Shown here: positions 1 to 18,114 of the stretch, piece after piece
How the letters are laid out: each line of letters opens with the position of its first letter
Position numbering within the stretch: the first letter of the stretch is position 1
Virus record (IMG/VR): IMGVR_UViG_2576861104_000010
DNA length: 45,889 bases
Origin: a virus
Taxonomy: Duplodnaviria; Heunggongvirae; Uroviricota; Caudoviricetes
Strand: one strand, 5' to 3'
Position numbers and translations under genes: made by a program
Notes under the pieces: model-generated
Told to the model about the DNA's origin: nothing
Databases searched by the model: none
What the model saw: the letters and a program-made list of their open reading frames with translations, nothing else

Positions 1-225
1 ACTGAGCGTCAGACCCCTAATAAAGCTGTTTTCCTCTTCCACCAGCACGATAAAACCCTTTTCCTCTTTTTCTCGCAATTCGCGCAGCAGCTGGAGTTCC
101 ATATCGCGGCGGCGTTCAGGGTAGCTGGTCCGCTCAGCCATTATCAGCTCGTTGTTGATCCATGCAGCAGTCATTGACGCCGGTTTGCCGACGCTCATCG
201 AAACAACGCATATTTTCTTATCCAT
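1..225 (-). CDS. Partial CDS (first 75 codons, continues past window start); mat-like by position downstream of ref
   Basis: Open frame from ATG at 223-225 (minus) to the window edge, reading MDKKICVVSMSVGKPASMTAAW...; not in the ORF track because no stop lies inside the window. Assignment to mat is by P1 synteny only. Confidence 0.4.
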   Translation of the reverse strand, partial: MDKKICVVSMSVGKPASMTAAWINNELIMAERTSYPERRRDMELQLLRELREKEEKGFIVLVEEENSFIRGLTLS

Positions 226-413
226 AGCGCCCCTACAAAAAAGAAAAGCCACCAGCGGCGGCTTAGCAATACAACTGAAGGTAGCGCCCGGTACTCAGAC
301 TGTGCCGTCCATGGAATATTTGAAAAGGGATCCATCCGTACCGGGCATGTGATGATTCTGACTGAAGTCACTTGTCAGTTGTCAATTATTTCAGATTAAA
401 AATAATATATTTA

Positions 414-974
414 TTAGTGCATGATGTTTGCCATCTCATAGGCGTCAGCCAGCAACTCCATCTCTGACTTGTTCAGCAAGGTGAATTCTTTCTTGCCTCC
501 AACCACACCATCGGCATGAACAGGGACCAGCCAGGGGTATTTTTCTCTTACTTCAGCCGGTGCTGCATGCTGGTGGTGCCATCTACAAAGGGGCAATTGC
601 TTTTTGTGACAACCCGGCGCGGTACGACCGGAGATATGGTGCAGAGATACCTCTTCAGATATTACTCCATGCATGTAGCAGGCAATGCAGGGGAGAGCGC
701 CAAGAGCATTGGCGATGCTCCGTTCCTCCGCTGTCGATGTTCGCCCCTTCAAGCCACGAGATTTTATCTTTACCGCACTTTTCCGCGTTTTGCTGGCTGG
801 TGGGCGCTCTTTCTGTTTAGCGATACGGCGGTCGATAGAATCCCGCATTTTCTGATATTGCGATTCTCGCCAGGCTGGGTCAGCCAACTTTTCCCGTTGC
901 CGAGCGATCGCTCGTTCTCTGGCTGCCTTCTGCCACTCGCGGCGCTGTTCAAGTTTTTGTTCGATTGTTTTCAT
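414..974 (-). CDS. ref: Ref, recombination enhancement function (HNH-type endonuclease), 186 aa
   Basis: Translation from the internal Met MKTIEQKLEQRREWQKAARERA... to ...LADAYEMANIMH matches recalled P1 Ref in length and sequence; Cys/His HNH-like motifs present; a C1 operator lies upstream. Confidence 0.85.
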   Translation of the reverse strand: MKTIEQKLEQRREWQKAARERAIARQREKLADPAWRESQYQKMRDSIDRRIAKQKERPPASKTRKSAVKIKSRGLKGRTSTAEERSIANALGALPCIACYMHGVISEEVSLHHISGRTAPGCHKKQLPLCRWHHQHAAPAEVREKYPWLVPVHADGVVGGKKEFTLLNKSEMELLADAYEMANIMH

Positions 975-1072
975 ATGGCAAAAAAAAGGCGGCCTAATGG
1001 CCGCCAATGATGTCAAGGAGTGAAGTAATGGCAACGTCTTCGTAGTTGACAAAAACTGCGGTTCAATTATAG

Positions 1073-1089
1073 CAATTAATTAGAGCAAT
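1073..1089 (-). promoter_or_regulatory. C1 operator-like site upstream of ref
   Basis: Reverse complement ATTGCTCTAATTAATTG, one or two mismatches to the P1 C1 operator consensus ATTGCTCTAATAAATTT. Confidence 0.6.
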
Positions 1090-1155
1090 GATATATATTT
1101 TGTTTATCGCGAATCACATTTTTTCACTTCAGTATCTGTGTGCTATACTCCTTCT

Positions 1156-1222
1156 TGATTGATTGGATGCGGAATACAAACCCGCTCTTTTGTGCAGCCT
1201 GGCTCCTTGCCAGGCTTTTTTT
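1156..1222 (+). ncRNA. Candidate small RNA: extended -10 promoter then hairpin plus T-run terminator
   Basis: TGcTATACT extended -10 at 1141-1149; stem GCCTGGC/GCCAGGC at 1197-1215 followed by seven T at 1216-1222; no plus-strand gene upstream. Contains GATTGATTGGAT at 1157-1168. Confidence 0.3.
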
Positions 1223-1532
1223 ATTTCATCATGGAAGCTGTTAACGCTTTGGATCTTGCTGAACTGATTGAAAGGGCATTGTTTACCTTACCCAGGAGTT
1301 CGCCAAATTCCACCATCACTCTAGTAAGCCCGCGCCGCGCTTCCTCCTCCGTTGCATTCATCACAAAATGTTCAGCACTCCGCATGCTTTTAACGGGGAA
1401 CGCAACAGATATCGAGTCGATATCAGGCATCCTATCGCTCAACTTTACGGTGACAATGACAGATGGTGACTGAATTTGAGAGCTTACAGACAGCACCACA
1501 TATTTTCCGTCTATTTTGAAATCCTTCCGCAT
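1221..1532 (-). CDS. Hypothetical protein between cre and ref, 103 aa
   Basis: ATG-initiated ORF in the same orientation as cre and ref, with a C1 operator 17-33 bp upstream of its start. A plus-strand ORF (1159..1473, TTG start) overlaps it; which strand is coding is unresolved. Confidence 0.35.
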   Translation of the reverse strand: MRKDFKIDGKYVVLSVSSQIQSPSVIVTVKLSDRMPDIDSISVAFPVKSMRSAEHFVMNATEEEARRGLTRVMVEFGELLGKVNNALSISSARSKALTASMMK

Positions 1533-1548
1533 GCGTCACCATAAATAT

Positions 1549-1565
1549 CAAATAATTAGAGCAAT
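1549..1565 (-). promoter_or_regulatory. C1 operator-like site
   Basis: Reverse complement ATTGCTCTAATTATTTG, close to the C1 operator consensus. Confidence 0.6.
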
Positions 1566-1582
1566 CAAGCGCAAATGAACGG

Positions 1583-2614
1583 CTAATCGCCATCTTCCAG
1601 CAGGCGCACCATTGCCCCCGTTTCACTATCCAGGTTACGAATGTAGTTCATGACAATATTTACGTTGGTCCAGCCACCAGCTTGCATGATCTCCGGTATT
1701 GAAACTCCGGCGCGGGCCATATCTCGCGCGGCTCCGACACGGGCACTGTGTCCAGACCAGGCCAGGTATCTCTGCCCAGAGTCATCCTTAGCGCCGTAAA
1801 TCAATCGATGAGTTGCTTCAAAAATCCCTTCCAGAGCGCGAGTTGATAGCTGGCTGGTGGCAGATGGCGCGGCAACACCATTTTTTCTGACACGGCAAAA
1901 CAGGTAGTTATTCGGATCATCAGCCACACCAGAGACAGAGATCCATCGCTCGACCAGTTTAGTTACCCCCAGGCTAAGTGCCTTCTCTACACCTGCGGTG
2001 CTAACCAGCGTTTTCGTTCTGCCAATATGGATTAACATTCTCCCACCGTCAGTACGTGAGATATCTTTAACCCTGATCCTGGCAATTTCGGCTATACGTA
2101 ACAGGGTGTTATAAGCAATCCCCAGAAATGCCAGATTCCGTATATCCTGGCAGCGATCGCTATTTTCCATGAGTGAACGAACCTGGTCGAAATCAGTGCG
2201 TTCGAACGCCAATGCCTGTTTTGCACGTTCACCGGCATCAACGTTTTCTTTTCGAATCCGCCGCATGACCAGTGAAACAGCATTACTGTCACTTGGTCGT
2301 GGCAGCCCGGACCGACGATGAAGCATGTTTAGCTGGCCCAAATGTTGCTGGATAGTTTTTACTGCCAGACCGCGCGCCTGAAGATATAGAAGATAATCGC
2401 GAACATCTTCAGGTTCTGCGGGAAACCATTTCCGGTTATTCAACTTGCACCATGCCGCCCACGACCGGCAAACGGACAGAAGCATTTTCCAGGTATGCTC
2501 AGAAAACGCCTGGCGATCCCTGAACATGTCCATCAGGTTCTTGCGAACCTCATCACTCGTTGCATCGACCGGTAATGCAGGCAAATTTTGGTGTACGGTC
2601 AGTAAATTGGACAT
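1583..2614 (-). CDS. cre: Cre site-specific tyrosine recombinase, 343 aa
   Basis: Protein MSNLLTVHQNLPALPVDATSDEVRKNLMDMFRDRQAFSEHTWKMLLSVCRSWAAWCKLNNRKWFPAEPEDVRDYLLYLQARGLAVKTIQQHLGQLNMLHRRSGLPRPSDSNAVSLVMRRIRKENVDAGERAKQALAFERTDFDQVRSLMENSDRCQDIRNLAFLGIAYNTLLRIAEIARIRVKDISRTDGGRMLIHIGRTKTLVSTAGVEKALSLGVTKLVERWISVSGVADDPNNYLFCRVRKNGVAAPSATSQLSTRALEGIFEATHRLIYGAKDDSGQRYLAWSGHSARVGAARDMARAGVSIPEIMQAGGWTNVNIVMNYIRNLDSETGAMVRLLEDGD is recognisably P1 Cre; loxP lies about 420 bp upstream. Confidence 0.97.
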   Translation of the reverse strand: MSNLLTVHQNLPALPVDATSDEVRKNLMDMFRDRQAFSEHTWKMLLSVCRSWAAWCKLNNRKWFPAEPEDVRDYLLYLQARGLAVKTIQQHLGQLNMLHRRSGLPRPSDSNAVSLVMRRIRKENVDAGERAKQALAFERTDFDQVRSLMENSDRCQDIRNLAFLGIAYNTLLRIAEIARIRVKDISRTDGGRMLIHIGRTKTLVSTAGVEKALSLGVTKLVERWISVSGVADDPNNYLFCRVRKNGVAAPSATSQLSTRALEGIFEATHRLIYGAKDDSGQRYLAWSGHSARVGAARDMARAGVSIPEIMQAGGWTNVNIVMNYIRNLDSETGAMVRLLEDGD

Positions 2615-2621
2615 TTAACAC

Positions 2622-2843
2622 TCAGATAATGGTTTTAAGTAAAGTGTACAGGATCGGCTCTGCCTTTACCTGTTTATGGTTCTCGTCATAGAAACGCCAG
2701 CGACCGCGCGTGCGTTCTATTTTCTCTTCACCGCGCGATAATGACAGTTGGCAACTATCACGATCAAACCCTTTTGCCCGCCAGTAACCACGGTTTTTCT
2801 CAAGCTCAAGATGAGTGGACACTTTAGCAGTTGAATATCCCAT
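2622..2843 (-). CDS. cra: Small cre-associated protein, 73 aa
   Basis: ORF immediately upstream of and co-oriented with cre, between loxP and cre, start preceded by AGAGGTG; symbol is from recalled P1 annotation. Confidence 0.5.
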   Translation of the reverse strand: MGYSTAKVSTHLELEKNRGYWRAKGFDRDSCQLSLSRGEEKIERTRGRWRFYDENHKQVKAEPILYTLLKTII

Positions 2844-3032
2844 TTTTCACCTCTGATTGATTGGTGGTGCTAAGTGCGCTACGCGAAATCTGTAGGACTA
2901 ACACCGCCAATTTTTCACAGATTTTACGTAGCGCAACCTTGATCAAATGATCAAGTGATCACTATTTGACCTGCCAAGGTATTGAACTGTATGGATTTAC
3001 AGGTAAATTGATCATATTCAATAACCCTTAAT

Positions 3033-3066
3033 ATAACTTCGTATAATGTATGCTATACGAAGTTAT
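3033..3066 (+). other. loxP recombination site (34 bp)
   Basis: Exact ATAACTTCGTATA-ATGTATGC-TATACGAAGTTAT: two 13-bp inverted arms around an 8-bp spacer. Confidence 0.97.
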
Positions 3067-3109
3067 TAGGTCTGATGAGGAGTTTACGTCCAGCCGTGTA
3101 GAAAAATCA

Positions 3110-3126
3110 AGAATTATTAGAGCAAT
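3110..3126 (-). promoter_or_regulatory. C1 operator-like site (ImmC region)
   Basis: Reverse complement ATTGCTCTAATAATTCT. Confidence 0.6.
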
Positions 3127-3193
3127 AAAAAATTGAGAGTAAAATCCCACTCCACCAGCCAAATACTGGATTGTTTTTCATAGTCGTTTGGCA

Positions 3194-3210
3194 ATTGCTC
3201 TAATAAATTA
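3194..3210 (+). promoter_or_regulatory. C1 operator (ImmC region, upstream of coi)
   Basis: ATTGCTCTAATAAATTA, one mismatch to consensus. Confidence 0.7.
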
Positions 3211-3448
3211 TAGTTTTGCCGCCGTTTCGTAATACGACTTTGGACTCACTACTTAATGTGTCTTCAGCGTTGTAGAGCGGCTCAGAAGGAAATGAGCAAA
3301 CAGGGAAACCTTATACAACGGCATTACCGCTATGCATTGCTCATCTTACACACAGCGCAATGTTGATAGATAACCCCAGCATGGAACATGGGTGAAACAG
3401 TAGGTCAGAGCTTCAGGCTCTGTGTTGTCAATACAGTGAGGCATAATT

Positions 3449-3658
3449 ATGGCTTTCATTCCACCAACCATCGACGATGTTAGACATTGCTCTAACGCTT
3501 TATCTGTAGACCCCGCCGAAACCGACGCTGCTCGCGCCATTGCTGAACACTACTCAAAGATATCCAATCAGGAGTACCGCATCACCCAAGACGACCTGGA
3601 TGATCTCACTGACACAATCGAATATCTCATGGCCACTAACCAGCCAGACTCACAATAA
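3449..3658 (+). CDS. coi: Coi, C1 inactivator, 69 aa
   Basis: 69-aa ORF directly upstream of c1 in the same orientation, as in the P1 ImmC region. Confidence 0.8.
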   Translation: MAFIPPTIDDVRHCSNALSVDPAETDAARAIAEHYSKISNQEYRITQDDLDDLTDTIEYLMATNQPDSQ

Positions 3659-3768
3659 ATGCACTAATAAATCTATTATTTTCGTTGGATCCTTTTATAA
3701 TGGTGGCCAACAACTCTCAGTGTCATCCGCTGTGAGCTGTTGGCCATGTCAATTCTGGAGGAGGATCA

Positions 3769-4620
3769 ATGATAAATTATGTCTACGGCGAACAACTGTA
3801 CCAGGAGTTCGTCAACTTCAGGGATCTCTTTCTAAAAAAAGCTGTTGCACGCGCCCAACACGTTGATGCCGCCAGCGACGGTCGTCCTGTTCGCCCGGTT
3901 GTCGTTCTGCCGTTCAAAGAAACGGACAGCATTCAGGCTGAAATTGATAAATGGACTTTAATGGCGCGGGAACTGGAACAGTACCCAGACCTCAATATCC
4001 CAAAGACTATTTTATATCCAGTGCCTAACATCCTTCGCGGTGTGCGTAAGGTTACGACTTATCAGACAGAAGCTGTGAACAGCGTCAACATGACCGCTGG
4101 CCGCATTATTCATCTGATTGATAAGGACATTCGCATTCAAAAAAGCGCGGGGATCAATGAGCACAGTGCGAAATACATAGAGAACCTGGAAGCAACAAAA
4201 GAGCTAATGAAGCAGTACCCGGAGGATGAAAAATTCCGTATGCGCGTACACGGCTTTAGCGAAACAATGCTGCGCGTGCATTACATTTCCAGTAGCCCTA
4301 ACTACAATGATGGTAAATCAGTTAGTTACCATGTGCCGCTATGTGGTGTGTTTATCTGCGATGAAACTCTCCGTGATGGAATCATCATCAACGGTGAATT
4401 CGAGAAAGCAAAATTTAGCCTTTATGACTCTATAGAACCGATCATCTGCGACCGCTGGCCGCAGGCAAAAATATATCGCCTGGCAGATATTGAAAATGTA
4501 AAAAAACAAATTGCCATCACTCGCGAAGAGAAAAAGGTCAAATCAGCCGCATCAGTTACGCGCAGCCGTAAAACTAAGAAGGGGCAGCCAGTAAACGACA
4601 ACCCCGAAAGCGCGCAATAG
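3769..4620 (+). CDS. c1: C1 repressor of lysis, 283 aa
   Basis: Protein MINYVYGEQLYQEFVNFRDLFLKKAVARAQHVDAASDGRPVRPVVVLPFKETDSIQAEIDKWTLMARELEQYPDLNIPKTILYPVPNILRGVRKVTTYQTEAVNSVNMTAGRIIHLIDKDIRIQKSAGINEHSAKYIENLEATKELMKQYPEDEKFRMRVHGFSETMLRVHYISSSPNYNDGKSVSYHVPLCGVFICDETLRDGIIINGEFEKAKFSLYDSIEPIICDRWPQAKIYRLADIENVKKQIAITREEKKVKSAASVTRSRKTKKGQPVNDNPESAQ is recognisably P1 C1 (283 aa); many cognate operators are present in the window. Confidence 0.95.
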   Translation: MINYVYGEQLYQEFVNFRDLFLKKAVARAQHVDAASDGRPVRPVVVLPFKETDSIQAEIDKWTLMARELEQYPDLNIPKTILYPVPNILRGVRKVTTYQTEAVNSVNMTAGRIIHLIDKDIRIQKSAGINEHSAKYIENLEATKELMKQYPEDEKFRMRVHGFSETMLRVHYISSSPNYNDGKSVSYHVPLCGVFICDETLRDGIIINGEFEKAKFSLYDSIEPIICDRWPQAKIYRLADIENVKKQIAITREEKKVKSAASVTRSRKTKKGQPVNDNPESAQ

Positions 4621-7380: not shown

Positions 7381-7408
7381 AAAAGGCCCGGAACGGGCAA
7401 GCAATCAA

Positions 7409-7861
7409 TCAGATACGTGCGGATGTGGCATTACCGTAATGACGGTGCTGACGGACCACCTTATTGAAAAGTTGACGCGCCATCACCCAAGGCTGGTGCT
7501 CCCGGCGTTCCTTTTCGTCCTGCGTCATATAGAGTTCGTTCTGGAGTTTTTCATCAAACCGGCGCGGAGCGCGGCTGCGGCGAAAGAATTCAGGATTCAG
7601 AGAGTGGATCTGAAATCTACGTGGGCGTGTACTGTCATCAATCAAAACAGACGAATACTTAGACACAGCGATAGCCTTTAAGCGCAGATAAACATCGCGC
7701 TTATCGACATCCAGATGCGGGTATTCCTTTTCAAGAATTGCTGCGAGTTCTTTCGCTGATAGAAGAGATTTAGTGCGGATCATGTAATCCGCAATCTCGT
7801 ACGATGTTATTCGTGAGTGATTTATTTCCATGAAGTGGCGTCCCTGCCAGTTAAGTAACAT
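7409..7861 (-). CDS. lpa: Lpa, late promoter activator, 150 aa
   Basis: 150-aa ORF directly upstream of pacA with a C1 operator upstream; position and size as P1 lpa (gene 10). Confidence 0.7.
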   Translation of the reverse strand: MLLNWQGRHFMEINHSRITSYEIADYMIRTKSLLSAKELAAILEKEYPHLDVDKRDVYLRLKAIAVSKYSSVLIDDSTRPRRFQIHSLNPEFFRRSRAPRRFDEKLQNELYMTQDEKERREHQPWVMARQLFNKVVRQHRHYGNATSARI

Positions 7862-12892: not shown

Positions 12893-15800
12893 ATGACTCA
12901 TCAGACACACACCATTGCTGAATCCAATAACTTTATCGTTCTTGATAAGTACATCAAAGCTGAGCAAACAGGCGACAGCTATCAGAGCGAATCGGACCTG
13001 GAACGTGAACTGATTCAGGACCTACAAAATCAGGGCTATGAATTTATAGCCGTAAAATCTCAGTCAGCGATGCTGGCCAATGCTCGGGAACAGCTTCAGA
13101 GCCTCAATGGTGTGGTGTTTAATGACAGCGAGTGGCGGCGTTTCACGGAGCAGTATCTGGACAACCCGAGCGATGGCATTCTGGATAAGACCCGTAAAAT
13201 CCATATCGACTATATCTGCGACTTTATTTTTGACGACGGGCGTCTTGAGAACATCTATCTGATCGATAAAAAGAATCTCATGCGCAACAAAGTGCAGATT
13301 ATCCAGCAGTTTGAACAGGCAGGTTCTCACGCTAACCGTTATGACGTAACTATCCTGGTTAATGGCTTGCCGCTGGTGCAAATCGAACTGAAAAAACGCG
13401 GCGTGGCGATTCGTGAAGCGTTCAACCAGATACACCGTTACAGCAAAGAGAGTTTTAACAGCGAAAATTCTCTGTTTAAGTATCTGCAACTGTTTGTCAT
13501 TTCCAACGGTACCGATACCCGTTATTTTGCCAACACAACAAAGCGCGATAAAAACAGTTTTGACTTCACCATGAACTGGGCGAAATCAGACAACACGCTG
13601 ATTAAAGACCTCAAAGATTTTACCGCTACCTTTTTCCAGAAACATACTCTGCTGAATGTTCTGGTGAACTACAGCGTGTTTGACAGTAGTCAGACGCTAC
13701 TGGTGATGCGACCGTACCAGATTGCAGCTACCGAACGAATTTTATGGAAAATCAACAGCTCCTATAAAGCGAAAAACTGGTCTAACCCCGAAAGCGGTGG
13801 CTTTATCTGGCACACCACTGGTTCCGGTAAAACACTGACCAGCTTTAAAGCCGCGCGTCTGGCAACAGAACTGGACTTTATTGATAAAGTCTTCTTCGTG
13901 GTCGACAGGAAAGACCTCGATTACCAGACCATGAAGGAATATCAGCGTTTTTCGCCAGATAGTGTTAACGGCTCGGAAAATACAGCAGGTCTTAAACGAA
14001 ATCTGGATAAGGACGATAACAAAATTATCGTCACCACTATTCAGAAACTTAATAACCTGATGAAAGCAGAAAGCGACCTGCCTGTATACAATCAGCAAGT
14101 GGTGTTTATATTTGATGAATGCCACCGCAGCCAGTTTGGAGAAGCGCAGAAAAACCTGAAGAAGAAATTCAAACGCTATTATCAGTTTGGTTTTACCGGC
14201 ACACCTATTTTCCCGGAAAACGCCTTAGGCTCAGAAACGACCGCCAGCGTATTTGGTCGTGAATTGCATTCGTATGTAATTACCGATGCGATTCGTGATG
14301 AAAAAGTGCTCAAATTCAAGGTGGACTACAACGATGTGCGGCCACAGTTTAAGTCTTTAGAGACAGAAACTGACGAGAAAAAACTGAGTGCGGCTGAAAA
14401 TCAGCAGGCGTTTCTTCATCCCATGCGTATTCAGGAAATCACGCAATATATTCTGAATAACTTCCGCCAGAAAACCCACCGTACCTTCCCTGGCTCAAAA
14501 GGTTTTAATGCTATGTTGGCAGTGAGCAGCGTGGATGCTGCAAAAGCCTATTACGCGACGTTTAAACGGTTACAAGAGGAAGCAGCTAATAAATCGGCCA
14601 CCTATAAACCGCTGCATATTGCGACAATCTTCTCCTTTGCTGCCAATGAAGAACAAAATGCCATTGGTGAAATTTCCGATGAAACTTTTGATACCAGCGC
14701 AATGGACAGCAGTGCTAAAGAGTTTCTTGATGCTGCAATTCGTGAGTATAACAGCTATTTTAAAACTAACTTCAGCACCGACAGTAACGGTTTTCAGAAC
14801 TACTATCGTGATTTAGCCCAACGGGTTAAAAATCAGGATATCGATCTGTTAATTGTCGTGGGGATGTTTTTAACTGGCTTCGATGCTCCAACATTGAACA
14901 CGCTATTCGTCGATAAAAACCTGCGTTTTCACGGCCTGATGCAGGCATTTTCCCGCACCAACCGTATTTATGATGCAACTAAAACCTTCGGTAATATCGT
15001 CACTTTCCGGGATCTGGAACGCTCAACTATTGATGCCATAACGCTGTTTGGTGACAAAAACACCAAAAATGTGGTTTTAGAAAAGAGTTATGCAGAGTAT
15101 ATGGAAGGCTTTACTGATGCTGCCACTGGTGAAGCTAAGCGCGGCTTTATGGCAGTAGTTTCAGAACTGGAACAACGGTTCCCTGACCCTGCCAGTATTG
15201 AAAGTGAAAAAGAGAAGAAAGACTTCGTTAAACTGTTTGGTGAATACCTGCGTGCCGAGAACATCCTGCAAAACTATGATGAATTTGCCACGCTGAAAGC
15301 CCTGCAACAAATCGATCTTAGCGATCCTGTTGCGGTAGAAAAATTCAAAGAAGAACATTATGTGGATGATGAAAAGTTCGCTGAATTGCAAACGATTCGT
15401 CTCCCTGCTGAACGCAAGATTCAGGATTATCGTTCTGCCTATAACGATATTCGTGACTGGCTGCGCCGTGAGAAAGAAGCTGAGAAAAAAGAGAAATCAA
15501 CCACTGACTGGGATGACGTAGTTTTTGAGGTCGATTTGCTGAAGTCTCAGGAAATAAACCTGGATTATATCCTTGGACTGATTTTCGAACACAACAGACA
15601 AAATAAAGGCAAGGGCGAAATGATCGAAGAGGTCAAACGCTTAATTCGTTCAAGCCTGGGGAACCGTGCTAAAGAGGGCCTGGTGGTCGATTTTATTCAG
15701 CAAACGAACCTGGATGATTTACCGGACAAAGCCAGCATCATTGACGCATTCTTTACGTTTGCTCAACGCGAACAGCAACGTGAAGCAGAAGCATTGATAA

Positions 15801-16009
15801 AAGAAGAAAATCTCAATGAAGAGGCAGCAAAACGTTATATTCGCACGTCTTTAAAACGCGAATACGCCACCGAAAATGGCACAGAATTAAACGAAACATT
15901 ACCAAAACTTAGTCCGTTGAATCCGCAATATAAAACGAAAAAACAGGCAGTTTTCCAGAAAATAGTCTCGTTTATTGAGAAGTTTAAAGGCGTAGGCGGA
16001 AAAATATAG
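12893..16009 (+). CDS. hsdR: Type I restriction endonuclease subunit HsdR, 1038 aa
   Basis: Helicase motifs (TTGSGKT Walker A, DECHRS motif II) and 1038-aa size typical of type IC HsdR; separate promoter region after hsdS. Confidence 0.9.
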
Positions 16010-16087
16010 CCTAATTCGTGTTTTTCTTGCGGGTTCTTAATTAAACCCGCATGAGACCGTGGGGTTCCAAATGGCTAATATACTCCC

Positions 16088-16174
16088 TTACCCATGCGCG
16101 ACGATGCCGCCAAAAGTGATAGAGAACAGCCAGAAATAGATCGCGGCCATAATGATTTTGAATGCCGTGTTCAT
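16088..16174 (-). CDS. Candidate small hydrophobic peptide, 28 aa (MNTAFKIIMAAIYFWLFSITFGGIVAHG)
   Basis: ATG preceded by AGGAG; overlaps a plus-strand GATTGATTGGAT motif and a hairpin plus T-run; below the ORF-track size cutoff. Could be a type I toxin-like peptide or chance. Confidence 0.3.
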   Translation of the reverse strand: MNTAFKIIMAAIYFWLFSITFGGIVAHG

Positions 16175-16256
16175 ATTTTCAGCTCCTGTGATTGATTGGA
16201 TACATGCCGCGCCTTGCGGCATGTTTTTATTTTCACTTTCTCTGCTTTAAAAAGCA

Positions 16257-16851: not shown

Positions 16852-18114
16852 TCAGCGAACGTAAATAGTACCGCCGTTCTCTTTTTCCCATGCATCGCTA
16901 CGTGCATAGCAAACATCGAGAAGTCTTCTTGCCGCTGTTTCCTCTAAACCCAATTCGACAACCAACTGCTCATGACGGCGGGTAACCACATCAAACAGGG
17001 TATGCAGCCCTTTAGCTGCCAGATCATCAATAAATTCCGGTTCGAACGGCAGCTCTGCCTCTGCCAACATAACCTCTTGCGCCCACTCAACTCGACGGAC
17101 CAGTTCCGGGCGGCGGCTTTCCATCTCTTTACAGATCAATTCATGGAAGAACTCTACCCAACCTTCCGGCTGGAACTCGCGGAAAATGGCCAACGGCTGG
17201 AAGTTTGGCATCAACCATTCGTTGATACGGATATCAATGGCATAGCCCATGTCGCAGCAGAACTGATAAGCAAAGTCCAGCTTAGAAACGATATAAGGAC
17301 GCTCGTTATTGAACTCTTTAGGCGATGAGATCCCATAAGCCAGGAGGCGCGGGAAGAATGAGATTTGCCCTAACGTCGGATGAAGTTTGCTTGCAGGGAA
17401 ATGGCGCTCAGTAATGCCATACATTTCCTTCTTGAGCGTCGCAAATTTGGCATTCTCATTAACCAGCGCGGTAACCTCTGCTTTTTTATTAGCAAATGCC
17501 ACGCGCGCTTCGCTTGCATCTTTAATAGTTTTTTTGAGCTGTTGGTTAAGGTCGGCGACCTGTTTACGCAGTTCCTGCCGCTCGCTTTTAGCTTTGTTAT
17601 AGCGTTTCTCAAGGTTAAAAGGATCAAGTTTCATGATCTCTTTATATTGAGATTTTAGCGTTGAAATCTGTGAGTTCCGCAGTTCAACCATCGCGGTCAT
17701 TTCATTGAGTTTTGTTTCCAGCTCAATGCTTATACGTTCGGCATTATCAGCACGCTGGTTGGCGTCATGCGTCGCATCGTCGATCGCGTCCTGTTGCTGG
17801 CGTTTCAAATGTTCAATTTGCAGCTGAAGCTCTTCAATTTCTTTACCCTTCAGACCGAGATCCAACTGCATATTTTCAGCTGCATCTACCAGGGAGTTAT
17901 GGCTATCAGCTTCTGCGTTATAAACATCAATAAGCTGTGCGTGAAGCATCTCCGCTGACTGAACCGCATTATCAAAAAAACGTGCTGTGAGGTCATCACA
18001 ACTAACGCGGCGTTGCGCGGCCCGGATGTTCTGGATAATGGCCGGGATACCGGCATTCAGGACATCAGGGATAGATACATTTTCGATTGATTGGTTTTGT
18101 GCTGAAGTGCTCAT
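16852..18114 (-). CDS. Hypothetical protein with long N-terminal coiled coil and uncharacterised C-terminal domain, 420 aa
   Basis: Heptad-rich, charged residues about 60-230; no Walker or other catalytic motifs seen; first gene product after a C1-operator pair. Confidence 0.55.
   Translation of the reverse strand: MSTSAQNQSIENVSIPDVLNAGIPAIIQNIRAAQRRVSCDDLTARFFDNAVQSAEMLHAQLIDVYNAEADSHNSLVDAAENMQLDLGLKGKEIEELQLQIEHLKRQQQDAIDDATHDANQRADNAERISIELETKLNEMTAMVELRNSQISTLKSQYKEIMKLDPFNLEKRYNKAKSERQELRKQVADLNQQLKKTIKDASEARVAFANKKAEVTALVNENAKFATLKKEMYGITERHFPASKLHPTLGQISFFPRLLAYGISSPKEFNNERPYIVSKLDFAYQFCCDMGYAIDIRINEWLMPNFQPLAIFREFQPEGWVEFFHELICKEMESRRPELVRRVEWAQEVMLAEAELPFEPEFIDDLAAKGLHTLFDVVTRRHEQLVVELGLEETAARRLLDVCYARSDAWEKENGGTIYVR

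Follow-up and report, generated by a model that had tools for sequence, protein, structure and literature searches.

A predicted small RNA gene, very strongly conserved between ref and c8, in P1-like phage-plasmids

Introduction

Phage P1, from which Cre-lox derives, has served as a model for 70 years; c4 is its known RNA regulator. The enterobacterial trans-acting sRNAs RybB, OmrA/B and MicC carry their seed at the extreme 5' end and use the terminator and U tail as an Hfq module. The phage RNAs OOP of lambda and sar of P22 are not known to act in trans. According to the account of Citron and Schuster (1990) given in PMC8201110, c4 of the P1/P7 immI region (Rfam C4 family) pairs with short complementary elements at the icd/ant ribosome-binding region and represses translation. 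Several E. coli sRNAs are likewise borne by temperate phages and expressed from prophages, including DicF, the anti-sRNAs AgvB/AsxR, svsR and the Pas sRNAs, as described in PMC5069750, PMC4104026, PMC12803456 and bioRxiv 10.64898/2026.05.13.724894.

In this study, the window, meaning the whole stretch of DNA that was analysed, is the full 45,889-nt sequence of IMG/VR record IMGVR_UViG_2576861104_000010, a P1-type phage-plasmid. We describe an unannotated, very strongly conserved putative small RNA gene of about 65 nt, which sits on its plus strand between ref and c8.

Results

Genes and position of the predicted small RNA

The features that define the locus are as follows.

1072..1088, minus strand: C1 operator Oref with the overlapping ref promoter P2ref, from P1 annotation and sequence; given for context
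1157..1222, plus strand: predicted small RNA of about 65 nt, with its probable 5' end at G1157 and its 3' end in the U tail
complement(~1828..1894) of AF234172/NC_005856: equivalent of the small RNA in P1, coordinates checked
1221..1532, minus strand: c8 ("establishment of lysogeny, putative"), an ORF of 103 codons, convergent with the small RNA gene
2622-2843, minus strand: cra, the ORF upstream of cre and first gene of the cra-cre transcript

The initial annotation had implied that the neighbouring gene is cra, and this had to be corrected: the 103-codon ORF at 1221-1532 is c8, so that the element lies between ref and c8, and cra is found at 2622-2843. The c8 stop codon (1221-1223, minus strand) overlaps the T run of the small RNA at 1216-1222. 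Oref lies at least 33 bp upstream of the -35 of the small RNA, and its promoter is therefore probably not repressed by C1. It had also been claimed that no upstream plus-strand gene exists which the terminator could serve, and this held, as the listed plus-strand ORFs are only antisense to ref and none is credible. Searches of Pfam and PHROGs returned no function for C8, Cra, orf28 or PmgT.

Predicted promoter and start of transcription

The following elements precede the predicted RNA.

1121..1126, plus strand: weak -35-like hexamer TTTTCA from the consensus scan, probably dispensable
1141..1149, plus strand: extended -10 TGcTATACT (TGCTATACT), invariant, with predicted promoter activity
1150..1156, plus strand: discriminator, a 7-nt pyrimidine-rich spacer, probably not transcribed, variable between invariant flanks

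The extended -10 reported in the initial annotation was recovered at 1141-1149 both in the sequence and by the consensus scan, which also gave a spacer of 17 bp between TTTTCA and TATACT and a TG upstream of TATACT. The sequence GATTGATTGG begins 7 nt after the extended -10, followed by a small hairpin and then by the terminator hairpin at 1196-1216. In the lineage of Cronobacter phage JK004 and in that of Salmonella plasmids, the extended -10 reads TGaTATACT and is again 7 nt from the seed, and the -35 TTTTCA is conserved in neither of them; in one contig a transposon end stands in place of the -35 and the extended -10 is retained. The discriminator appears as CCTTCTT, CTTTCTT, CCTTTCT, CCCTTCC or CGTTCTT in P1-type elements and as CATTCGC, CGTTCGC or CATCCGC in the other lineages. 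We infer from these observations that the small RNA has its own sigma-70 promoter, relying on the extended -10 TGnTATACT. Transcription would start about 7-8 nt past this element, most likely at G1157, which is 1 nt later than the start first proposed for an RNA of about 67 nt.

The promoter and terminator motifs alone are not beyond chance, since in a 4-kb scan their densities match those of shuffled sequence: promoter-like sites number 7 (6.0 expected) and terminator-like sites 3 (3.5 expected). Other candidate elements were set aside. The anti-Shine-Dalgarno stretch CUCCUU (1149-1154) is probably not transcribed, as it sits within 5 nt of the -10 and has no conserved counterpart in the other lineages, and both an alternative upstream -10, CAGTAT (1130-1135), and a P1 late-promoter box are not conserved and have the wrong spacing.

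Structure and terminator of the predicted RNA

Three parts make up the predicted RNA.

1157..1166, plus strand: seed GAUUGAUUGG, at the 5' end of the RNA
1169..1185, plus strand: stem-loop 1 (SL1), GCGG-AAUACAAAC-CCGC, from the predicted fold
1196..1222, plus strand: intrinsic terminator with an 8-bp stem, loop UCCUU and U tail, from the consensus scan and the fold

The RNA folds as a single-stranded 5' end followed by SL1 and the terminator stem-loop SL2, with -23.2 kcal/mol and z = -3.3, and the same architecture folds in all three lineages (P1-type, JK004 and Salmonella) with z = -3.0 to -3.5. Folding leaves the first 7-8 nt of the seed unpaired in every lineage; its last 2-3 nt are taken up in the base of SL1. 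The loop of SL1 varies, and one variant has G-C changed to G.U together with a new G-C pair; at the SL1 position the other lineages hold unrelated hairpins, UGUAG-CGAAA-CUACA in JK004 and UGCAUGGA-GAGA-UCCUUGCA in the Salmonella type. The arrangement of 5' seed, small hairpin, linker and terminator with U tail is the usual one for enterobacterial base-pairing sRNAs.

The GC-rich hairpin and run of seven T that had been noticed downstream of the -10 were found as described, at 1196-1222. The hairpin, AGCCTGGC-TCCTT-GCCAGGCT at 1196-1216, has 8 pairs of which 6 are G-C, and the seven T occupy 1216-1222; among relatives the U tail ranges from 5 to 11 U. In other lineages one pair of the stem changes compensatorily from U-A to C-G and another from G-C to G.U, and the innermost pair changes from C-G to U.G in some P1-type variants. 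C-to-U changes that arose independently three times leave G.U pairs on the plus strand and would leave A.C mismatches on the minus strand, and one stem substitution, G1184 to A in a single sequence, would be tolerated only on the minus strand. On the minus strand, which is that of c8, the hairpin is followed by GCACAAAAGAGC, and a U tract follows it only on the plus strand. A terminator of c8, or a bidirectional terminator, finds no U tract on the c8 strand, and the scan reports the plus strand only.

With respect to coding potential, we found no ORF with a Shine-Dalgarno sequence in the element, only TTG- or GTG-start ORFs antisense to c8; the RNA lengths of 66, 68 and 71 nt in the three lineages break any reading frame, so that no ORF is conserved in it. 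The U tail and, in the P1 type, the internal U-rich stretch UCUUUUGU are the sole features suggestive of Hfq/ProQ binding. Hfq dependence is uncertain, because the other lineages do not share this stretch.

Conservation in related elements

Constraint was measured over 87 distinct ref-c8-cre haplotypes of P1-like elements. Variable sites numbered 0/9 in the extended -10, 1/10 in the seed and 0/16 in the terminator stems, and 2/5 in the terminator loop and 3/7 in the 7-nt discriminator. Nucleotide diversity in the RNA was 0-0.009, against 0.168 at c8 third-codon positions and 0.10-0.16 in adjacent non-coding spacers; the third-codon sites of c8 and the neighbouring spacers vary 10-100 times more than the -10, seed and terminator stems. 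By this comparison, the predicted small RNA unit is under strong purifying selection in P1-like elements.

Distant lineages with the same layout are Cronobacter phage JK004, whose C8 is 50% identical, the related contig L256, and Salmonella plasmids. Downstream of c8 and on the opposite strand, they show TGaTATACT, 7 nt, GATTGATTGG, an unrelated hairpin and GUGC, and then the terminator AGCCCGGC-GAAA-GCUGGGCU with a U-rich tail. The seed GAUUGAUUGG is identical in the P1-type, JK004 and Salmonella lineages, and the gene stays downstream of c8 in all three. The homologues in distant lineages were missed by blastn, and a covariance model built from P1-type sequences alone recovered each of them as a single full-length match, at E ~1e-5 and on the predicted strand. 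A weak match of this model at 16190-16229 (plus strand) was rejected, being the reverse complement of target site 2 (see below) and a leader hairpin, with no correctly spaced promoter. In an Aeromonas plasmid carrying a distant C8-like ORF, the checks, the covariance model among them, found no recognisable homologue of the small RNA. Scanning genome contigs with C8 gave only three loci, and a pattern scan of metagenomes returned mostly P1-type copies, the rest being chance matches.

P1-type elements were found, on plasmids, in 615 of 5,426 complete E. coli genomes (about 11%). The small RNA element also occurs in elements of Salmonella, Shigella, Klebsiella and Cronobacter; resistance genes are present on many of these elements. 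In JK004 and the Salmonella plasmids a small membrane ORF ends about 10 nt from the RNA terminator, and in the JK004 lineage a 52-codon membrane ORF converges on the small RNA gene. In one Salmonella plasmid, c8 and the small RNA gene are deleted together.

Complementary sites and candidate targets

The 10-mer complementary to the seed, CCAATCAATC, occurs 5 times in the window against 0.14 expected (about 35-fold), and 0 of 100 shuffles reached 5. All copies of the motif but one are on the gene-sense (minus) strand. The longer CCAATCAATCA has exactly three copies in the window, each on the minus strand; one is the complement of the element itself, and the others are at 2854-2864 and 16189-16199. 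The complementary element had been described as lying upstream of several minus-strand genes; it lies upstream of two, and in a third gene it falls in the early coding region. The candidate targets are given below.

2854..2864, minus strand: candidate target site 1, CCAAUCAAUCA, directly 5' of the cra Shine-Dalgarno GAGGUG
16189..16202, minus strand: candidate target site 2, (GUAU)CCAAUCAAUCA, directly 5' of the orf28 Shine-Dalgarno AGGAG and downstream of the C1 operator Op88
16088..16174, minus strand: orf28, an unannotated 28-codon membrane ORF (MNTAFKIIMAAIYFWLFSITFGGIVAHG), first cistron of the Op88-controlled pmgT operon in P1
18085..18094, minus strand: candidate target site 3, CCAAUCAAUC, in pmgS codons 7-10 (positions +21 to +30)

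At the cra leader, site 1 is invariant in 82 of 83 loci, and the lone change, C to U, keeps a G.U pair. The motif is retained in the homologous leader of JK004, L256 and L185 despite different flanks, and some Salmonella plasmids (L186, L187) have a 4-nt deletion at the cre-operon site. The predicted duplex at site 1 reaches -18.1 kcal/mol, a value to which a second, distal helix contributes in addition to the seed duplex of 10-11 bp. At orf28, the motif of site 2 is intact in 66 of 70 loci and exact in JK004 although its flanks differ; the duplex of 14 bp reaches -22.4 kcal/mol against a background mean of -10.1 (sd 2.5), that is about 5 sd, and the site is unpaired in the minimum-energy fold of the orf28 mRNA. 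The orf28 stop codon in P1 lies only a few nucleotides ahead of the pmgT start, the ORF carries the annotation "membrane protein" in SJ46, and a hydrophobic ORF occupies the same position in JK004. At site 3 the pmgS duplex is -15.7 kcal/mol, and JK004 pmgS retains GCCAAUCAAUCA at the equivalent place with the same synonymous choices, the flanking codons having diverged. JK004 and L256 have an extra complementary site abutting the ref ATG.

No compensatory seed-target changes were found in 95 loci and three seed-variant plasmids; the complementary motif is too invariant. The rare seed variants GATTAATTGG and GATTGATTGT accompany unchanged target motifs, and in the plasmid without c8 and the small RNA gene both target motifs are still intact. 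Support for base pairing comes from co-conservation and not from compensation, since no compensation was seen and the motifs stay unchanged beside seed variants or after loss of the RNA.

Known RNA families and prior reports

No Rfam family covers the region, either at the gathering threshold or by E-value, and the best sub-threshold match over the element was SorX, whose 22.6 bits fall short of the gathering score of 46.6. The C4 covariance model gave no match, either over the window at its gathering threshold or, within 1-4000, with E-values up to 10. The small RNA is absent from the P1 GenBank record and from Rfam. A full-text literature search, partly poorly targeted, found no report of an RNA at ref-c8, though an older mention may exist, and the P1 RNA-seq and CRISPRi papers that it found do not mention the small RNA.

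Discussion

Taking the evidence together, we judge it fairly probable that the region 1141-1222 on the plus strand is the gene for a trans-acting, base-pairing sRNA of about 65 nt in P1-like phage-plasmids. The sequence elements, the selective constraint, the conservation across lineages, and the enrichment and co-conservation of complementary sites were all observed directly; selection, the two distant lineages and the co-conserved sites argue for the small regulatory RNA gene that the initial annotation had thought plausible, and its -10, hairpin and seven T are in the sequence as it described them. Transcription, exact ends, direction of regulation, Hfq dependence and timing of the RNA are what we infer from this pattern. 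The intrinsic terminator would end the RNA in the U run 1216-1222, and the 5' seed GAUUGAUUGG would pair in trans with CCAAUCAAUC(A) sites: in the cra-cre leader and ahead of orf28, where they abut the ribosome-binding sites, in the early codons of pmgS and, for the lineage of JK004, at the ref start codon. The likeliest effect would be that ribosome loading is blocked, that target mRNAs are destabilised, or both. The small RNA is probably made in lysogens, because no C1 operator overlaps its promoter, and there it may add a post-transcriptional silencing of leaky lytic or accessory transcripts. As the RNA is perfectly antisense to any c8 transcript reading through toward ref, it is likely to act in cis as well. 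No plaque phenotype was seen when c8, cra, cre, ref and pmgT were knocked down by CRISPRi (PMC10695390), and any role of the small RNA is thus not essential for lytic growth.

Among other explanations, it is conceivable, though we hold it rather unlikely, that an RNA is made and acts exclusively in cis on the c8 operon, as antisense and as a roadblock to transcription in the way of lambda OOP or P22 sar, with the motif matches elsewhere incidental. It lies on the strand opposite to this operon, in the intergenic region that separates c8 from ref, and pairing or polymerase collision would then uncouple the downstream genes (ref, or gene_57 to ref in JK004) from c8/cre transcription. Several observations fit this: c8 lacks a U-tract terminator, and its transcripts are therefore expected to read through the element, the element keeps a position immediately 3' of the c8 module in all three lineages, c8 and the RNA gene were lost jointly in one plasmid, and ref is controlled by an attenuator and antiterminator, going by the title of Windle et al. 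1988 as cited in PMC4713147. However, an RNA acting purely in cis as antisense could have any sequence, and here precisely the first 10 nt are invariant across lineages in an RNA whose body has diverged; the enriched 10-mer, too, stands at ribosome-binding sites and is co-conserved in JK004. The cis-only and trans models are compatible, and both may hold. Somewhat less probable to us is that the RNA serves as the antitoxin of a dispersed pair resembling type I toxin-antitoxin systems, with the main task of keeping orf28 untranslated in lysogens. The strongly hydrophobic 28 residues of orf28, the best predicted duplex of all, abutting the Shine-Dalgarno sequence with its 14 bp, the hydrophobic ORF with the same motif at the matching position in JK004, and the small membrane ORF close to the RNA terminator in JK004 and the Salmonella plasmids all speak in its favor, and in the JK004 lineage the idea could extend to the convergent 52-codon membrane ORF. 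Type I pairs are normally adjacent or overlapping, however, and the RNA gene and orf28 lie 12-15 kb apart (15 kb in the window, about 12 kb in P1); moreover, orf28 is the first cistron of a larger C1-controlled operon, the plasmid without the RNA gene retains orf28 with an intact site, and the conserved cra, pmgS and ref sites would remain unexplained.

Slighter still is the chance that no plus-strand RNA is made and that the conserved block is an element of the minus strand, a c8 3' UTR with a stabilising hairpin together with a CA-rich CCAAUCAAUCA element, whose recurrence at several ribosome-binding sites would reflect a role as a translational enhancer or as a site for a phage RNA-binding protein; the "-10" and T run of the other strand would then be by-products. 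CA-rich unstructured leaders do favor translation in E. coli, the gene-sense strand holds all motif copies but one, that of the element itself included, and the intergenic copy in P1 is followed by an SD-like AAGGAG. Against this, no start codon stands at a workable distance after the intergenic copy, and conservation in the other lineages extends to the TGnTATACT of the opposite strand, exactly 7 nt away, but not to the SD-like stretch; only the plus strand accommodates the U tract and the G.U pairs, and an invariant -10, variable discriminator and invariant seed form the pattern of a promoter and a start. That a promoter-like hexamer merely happens to stand beside a hairpin after c8, without function, agrees with the chance density of such matches here but is already very unlikely, given the near-zero diversity amid highly variable flanks, an arrangement conserved where C8 is only 50% identical, and the excess of the complementary motif.

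If the preferred reading of a trans-acting small RNA is carried further, we would give roughly even chances to the wider proposition that P1-type phage-plasmids encode an unrecognised sRNA with its own regulon, comprising cra-cre, Op88/pmgT via orf28, pmgS and, in some lineages, ref. Next to C1, Lxc and c4, it would give P1 an additional, post-transcriptional level of control over immunity and lysogeny. Related phages that enter the cell, and possibly host mRNAs, could also come under its action, and phenotypes mapped in the past to the c8/ref region may be due to it. P1 is among the best-studied phages, and the small RNA is probably a post-transcriptional regulator new to it. If so, a second conserved sRNA would change the view of how a plasmid-prophage silences accessory and lytic genes, with its sites on the cre operon leader, a C1-controlled operon and the head gene pmgS; the puzzlingly conserved ref-c8 spacer would gain a concrete function, and the unannotated micro-ORF orf28 would be revealed. 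Any effect on the host or on superinfecting phages would be widespread, because the element is present in about 11% of complete E. coli genomes and in other genera.

Compared with RybB, OmrA/B and MicC, the predicted RNA shares general features: a length of about 65-90 nt, a sigma-70 promoter of its own, a 5' seed of about 10 nt that is conserved and single-stranded, a single internal hairpin, an intrinsic terminator followed by at least 6 U, and target contacts, here predicted, at or just upstream of the Shine-Dalgarno sequence or in the first codons. It differs in being encoded by a phage-plasmid and in having phage genes as its best candidate targets. DicF, AgvB/AsxR, svsR and the Pas sRNAs, as far as the cited accounts describe them, belong to lambdoid prophages and have mainly host mRNAs or sRNAs as targets, whereas the present RNA belongs to a P1 plasmid-prophage with conserved sites in the phage's own operons. 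With lambda OOP and P22 sar it shares the character of a short terminated RNA directed toward the 3' end of a gene implicated in lysogeny establishment, here c8, and full complementarity to any transcripts reading through from the operon; in contrast to them, it overlaps the c8 coding sequence by the stop codon only (1221-1223), and its 5' seed and dispersed sites point to action in trans. The type I antitoxins IstR-1/tisB and OhsC/shoB, with their short imperfect pairing, resemble it in the pairing, predicted here, beside the ribosome-binding region of a tiny hydrophobic ORF (here orf28), but here RNA gene and ORF are far apart and several further sites are conserved. As for c4, the analogy drawn in the initial annotation applies to function and not to sequence or structure, where no C4 Rfam match was obtained. 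In the account of c4 cited above, the likeness is that of a small RNA of the same phage, pairing over a short stretch at the ribosome-binding region and helping to silence lytic functions in lysogens. A difference is that c4 is processed from the transcript it regulates, whereas a dedicated promoter and terminator would produce the present RNA, which would address several unlinked operons.

The proposed small RNA locus and its signals

Over its first 3 kb, the window shows 89-99% identity to P1, P7, SJ46, RCS47 and JL22. The minus-strand gene order of the P1 GenBank record places the candidate small RNA gene between ref and c8; the neighbour that the initial annotation had called cra is c8 in that record. 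The sequence elements that it had pointed out, namely an extended -10, a hairpin and seven T, were confirmed and are listed with their surroundings.

414-974, minus strand: ref (P1 GenBank record)
Oref, a C1 operator, ending 33 bp upstream of the small RNA -35 (P1 GenBank record)
17 bp upstream of the TATACT hexamer, plus strand: weak -35, TTTTCA (sequence)
1141-1149, plus strand: extended -10, TGCTATACT (sequence)
1196-1216, plus strand: 8-bp G+C-rich terminator hairpin (sequence)
1216-1222, plus strand: run of seven T (sequence)
1221-1532, minus strand: c8 (P1 GenBank record)
1583-2614, minus strand: cre (P1 GenBank record)
2622-2843, minus strand: cra (P1 GenBank record)

Both the promoter and the terminator were reported by a consensus scan, in which promoter-like and terminator-like matches were not more frequent here than in shuffled sequence, and judged alone the pair could be accidental. 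The P1 GenBank record, with a very detailed annotation of 535 features, has no plus-strand feature in the ref-c8 spacer. The sequence CGATAAA, reported as a high-affinity H-NS nucleation site in the ref regulatory region (PMC4713147), maps to 1103-1109 on the minus strand, between Oref and the small RNA -35, where H-NS could affect both divergent promoters (ref and small RNA).

The leader of ref carries a strong intrinsic terminator at 988-1005 (minus strand; GGCGGCC-AUUA-GGCCGCC, then eight U), a few nucleotides before the ATG at 974, and it is kept in Cronobacter phage JK004 and the Salmonella plasmids. It presumably corresponds to the 'attenuator' reported by Windle et al. (1988). No Shine-Dalgarno is visible at the ref start in the window sequence.

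Constraint within P1-like elements

The 86 bases of the element are the same in seven phages, although the 651 bases around them are only 89-98% identical. More divergent plasmids still carry a near-invariant block that begins at the -10 and ends with the T run, preceded by 30 scrambled bases. Nucleotide diversity was measured in 87 distinct haplotypes, obtained from 111 loci with the entire ref-cre segment.

Nucleotide diversity in the 87 haplotypes (variable sites; mean diversity)
Extended -10: 0/9; 0.000
7-nt discriminator: 3/7; 0.019
Seed (10-nt RNA 5' end, 1157-1166): 1/10; 0.002
First hairpin (SL1) and linkers: 5/29; 0.009
Terminator stems: 0/16; 0.000
Terminator loop: 2/5; 0.018
c8 third-codon positions: mean 0.168
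Flanking non-coding spacers: mean 0.10-0.16

To judge from this variation, a fixed -10, a variable spacer of fixed length, a fixed 5' end and stems, and a variable loop form the pattern expected of a promoter and a structured RNA.

Several rearrangements were also noticed. In one IMG/VR contig (the variant starting CGTGCTTTATTTTCCGTTTTCTGAGACGACCCC), an insertion that looks like an inverted-repeat end of the Tn21/Tn1721 family has replaced the -35 region; it sits about 8 bp before the extended -10, and the -10 and the RNA are intact. Loci L008-L011 (E. albertii and E. coli O26 plasmids) have a plus-strand KilAC/Ant antirepressor gene in place of ref, ending about 60 bp before an Oref-like operator, and retain the small RNA gene with a seed variant, G1166 to U. 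In the Salmonella plasmid NZ_CP077708.1 (L014/L102), one deletion, with its ends at about codon 8 of c8 and at the small RNA -35, has removed both c8 and the RNA gene, bringing ref directly beside cre.

Distant lineages, fold and strand

The JK004 and Salmonella-type copies were not detected by blastn. A tblastn search with C8 led to JK004, whose C8 is 50% identical, and where the element lies on the opposite strand, downstream of c8 and one additional small membrane ORF, and reads TGaTATACT-CATTCGC-GATTGATTGG-CU-UGUAG-CGAAA-CUACA-GCCAUGUGUGC-AGCCCGGC-GAAA-GCUGGGCU-UCUUUCUUUU. A third version occurs in a Salmonella plasmid group and three viral contigs, and its first hairpin differs again (UGCAUGGA-GAGA-UCCUUGCA). 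Every version has the extended -10 at a 7-nt distance from the common ten-base 5' sequence, followed by a hairpin in the same place, GUGC and a terminator. Compared with P1, one terminator pair has gone from U-A to C-G and a second one from G-C to G.U. The same fold is predicted for all three versions (z-scores -3.0 to -3.5), and a covariance model built from P1-type sequences only gave one full-length match per distant locus, on the expected strand, with E about 1e-5.

As regards strand, the U tract follows the hairpin on the plus strand only. Three independent C-to-U substitutions in stems keep a G.U pair if the plus strand is read and produce A.C if the minus strand is; a singleton stem substitution favours the minus strand. 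No ORF is conserved across the three lineages, and the RNA lengths differ. The possibility that the element serves as the c8 terminator was rejected, since the c8 strand has GCACAAAAGAGC after the hairpin.

The additional ORF of JK004 (gene_58, 3309-3467 of its locus) has an equivalent in the Salmonella plasmids L185-L187; it is a 52-codon membrane ORF, overlaps the c8 end and stops about 10 nt from the small RNA terminator. In these two lineages the convergent layout of ORF and small RNA recalls type I toxin-antitoxin loci.

Complementary sites

Against an expectation of 0.14, the 45.9-kb window contains five copies of the seed complement CCAATCAATC, one of them the element's own complement. 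The others are as follows.

2855-2864, minus strand: site 1, directly 5' of the cra Shine-Dalgarno GAGGUG, in the leader of the cra-cre transcript
16190-16199, minus strand: site 2, directly 5' of the AGGAG of orf28, an unannotated 28-codon hydrophobic ORF
18085-18094, minus strand: site 3, codons 7-10 of pmgS
27038, plus strand: antisense within an ORF, probably chance

The proposal that the complement lies upstream of several minus-strand genes thus holds for cra and orf28, and fails for the third copy, which is inside pmgS. Site 1 is unchanged in 82 of 83 loci, the single change leaving a wobble pair, and site 2 is intact in 66 of 70; with common flanking sequence, site 2 is predicted to form a 14-bp duplex of -22.4 kcal/mol (background -10.1 ± 2.5).

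JK004 and a related contig retain the motif at three places whose flanks have diverged: the homologous cre-operon leader, the position before the orf28 homologue, and the corresponding pmgS codons, in which the synonymous choices are identical. An additional copy abuts the ref ATG, and in JK004 this CCAAUCAAUC motif lies between the ref-leader terminator and the ATG. On sequence comparison, seed and sites are conserved together across lineages, and pairing in trans is argued chiefly from this. No compensatory seed-target change was found, the targets being unchanged beside rare seed variants. The cre-operon site has lost 4 nt in some Salmonella plasmids; both target motifs are intact in L014/L102 despite the loss of c8 and the RNA gene.

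The stop-codon region of lpa (7401-7411, minus strand) reads UGAUUGAUUGC, so that the mRNA 3' end carries 9-10 nt of the seed sequence, immediately followed by a terminator hairpin GCCCGUUCCGGGC and U run. This is kept in all plasmids checked, and could be a coincidence of tandem stop codons or a second, 3'-UTR-borne seed copy.

The orf28 region

orf28 (MNTAFKIIMAAIYFWLFSITFGGIVAHG; window 16088-16174, minus strand; about 84393-84479 in P1 AF234172) has a good Shine-Dalgarno and lies in P1 between the C1 operator Op88 and pmgT, with a few nucleotides separating its stop from the pmgT start codon. Its annotation in SJ46 reads 'membrane protein', and JK004 has a hydrophobic ORF at this position, whose annotated start looks too far downstream. 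In the window, P1 homology ends directly after the orf28 stop; beyond it, in the region 12893-16085, pmgT is replaced by hsdR (1038 aa), a type I restriction gene in convergent orientation. According to the P1 record, this junction is identical with the DNA that follows the EcoDXXI and R124/3 hsd loci. orf28 and its leader thus mark a boundary at which restriction-modification cassettes recombine.

Read as its reverse complement, the orf28 leader (16190-16240, plus strand) has a hairpin CATGCCGCGCCTTGCGGCATG between a seed-like GATTGATTGGATAC and TTTTTATTTT. This stretch matches the covariance model weakly (16.4 bits, E 0.11), has no promoter at the right distance, and looks like the 3' half of an sRNA or a terminator; it may be the hsdR terminator, or a trace of an inverted duplication that gave rise to the small RNA gene and its target.

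Proposed mechanism

Transcription would start at about G1157 from an extended-10-dependent sigma-70 promoter and end at the terminator, giving the RNA of about 65 nt. The promoter is probably not C1-repressed, because Oref ends 33 bp upstream of its -35; H-NS influence is possible. Pairing would take place between the single-stranded 5' end and CCAAUCAAUC(A) beside or just inside ribosome-binding regions, and would most likely repress translation of, and/or destabilise, the cra-cre leader transcript, orf28 and pmgS, ref in some lineages, and perhaps pmgT through coupling to orf28. An RNA free of C1 repression would also occur in lysogens, where it would damp leaky expression of C1-controlled or accessory operons. 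Since it is fully complementary to c8 read-through towards ref, an additional cis effect is likely. CRISPRi knock-down of neighbouring and target genes gave no plaque phenotype (PMC10695390); lytic growth therefore does not require the system.

Assessment and comparison with known systems

Constraint, distant lineages and co-conserved sites together support the initial annotation's reading of a regulatory small RNA. We consider it rather probable that the gene yields an expressed trans-acting sRNA, a putative phage-encoded base-pairing sRNA by class, and hold with somewhat less confidence that the named genes are true targets and that the effect is repression. No earlier description was found in the RefSeq annotations of 615 E. 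coli genomes carrying the element, nor any of an RNA here in the searchable literature, which covers the early P1 papers in part.

The small RNA matches neither the C4 family nor any other in Rfam, and the entire 45.9-kb window has no C4 RNA match, its only above-threshold matches being two tRNA genes (29556-29628 and 30797-30872, minus strand). In P1, the small RNA and orf28 lack the adjacency of type I toxin-antitoxin systems. The RNA resembles type I antitoxins as regards orf28, lambda OOP in position, and c4 of P1/P7 and enterobacterial sRNAs with a 5'-end seed in function.
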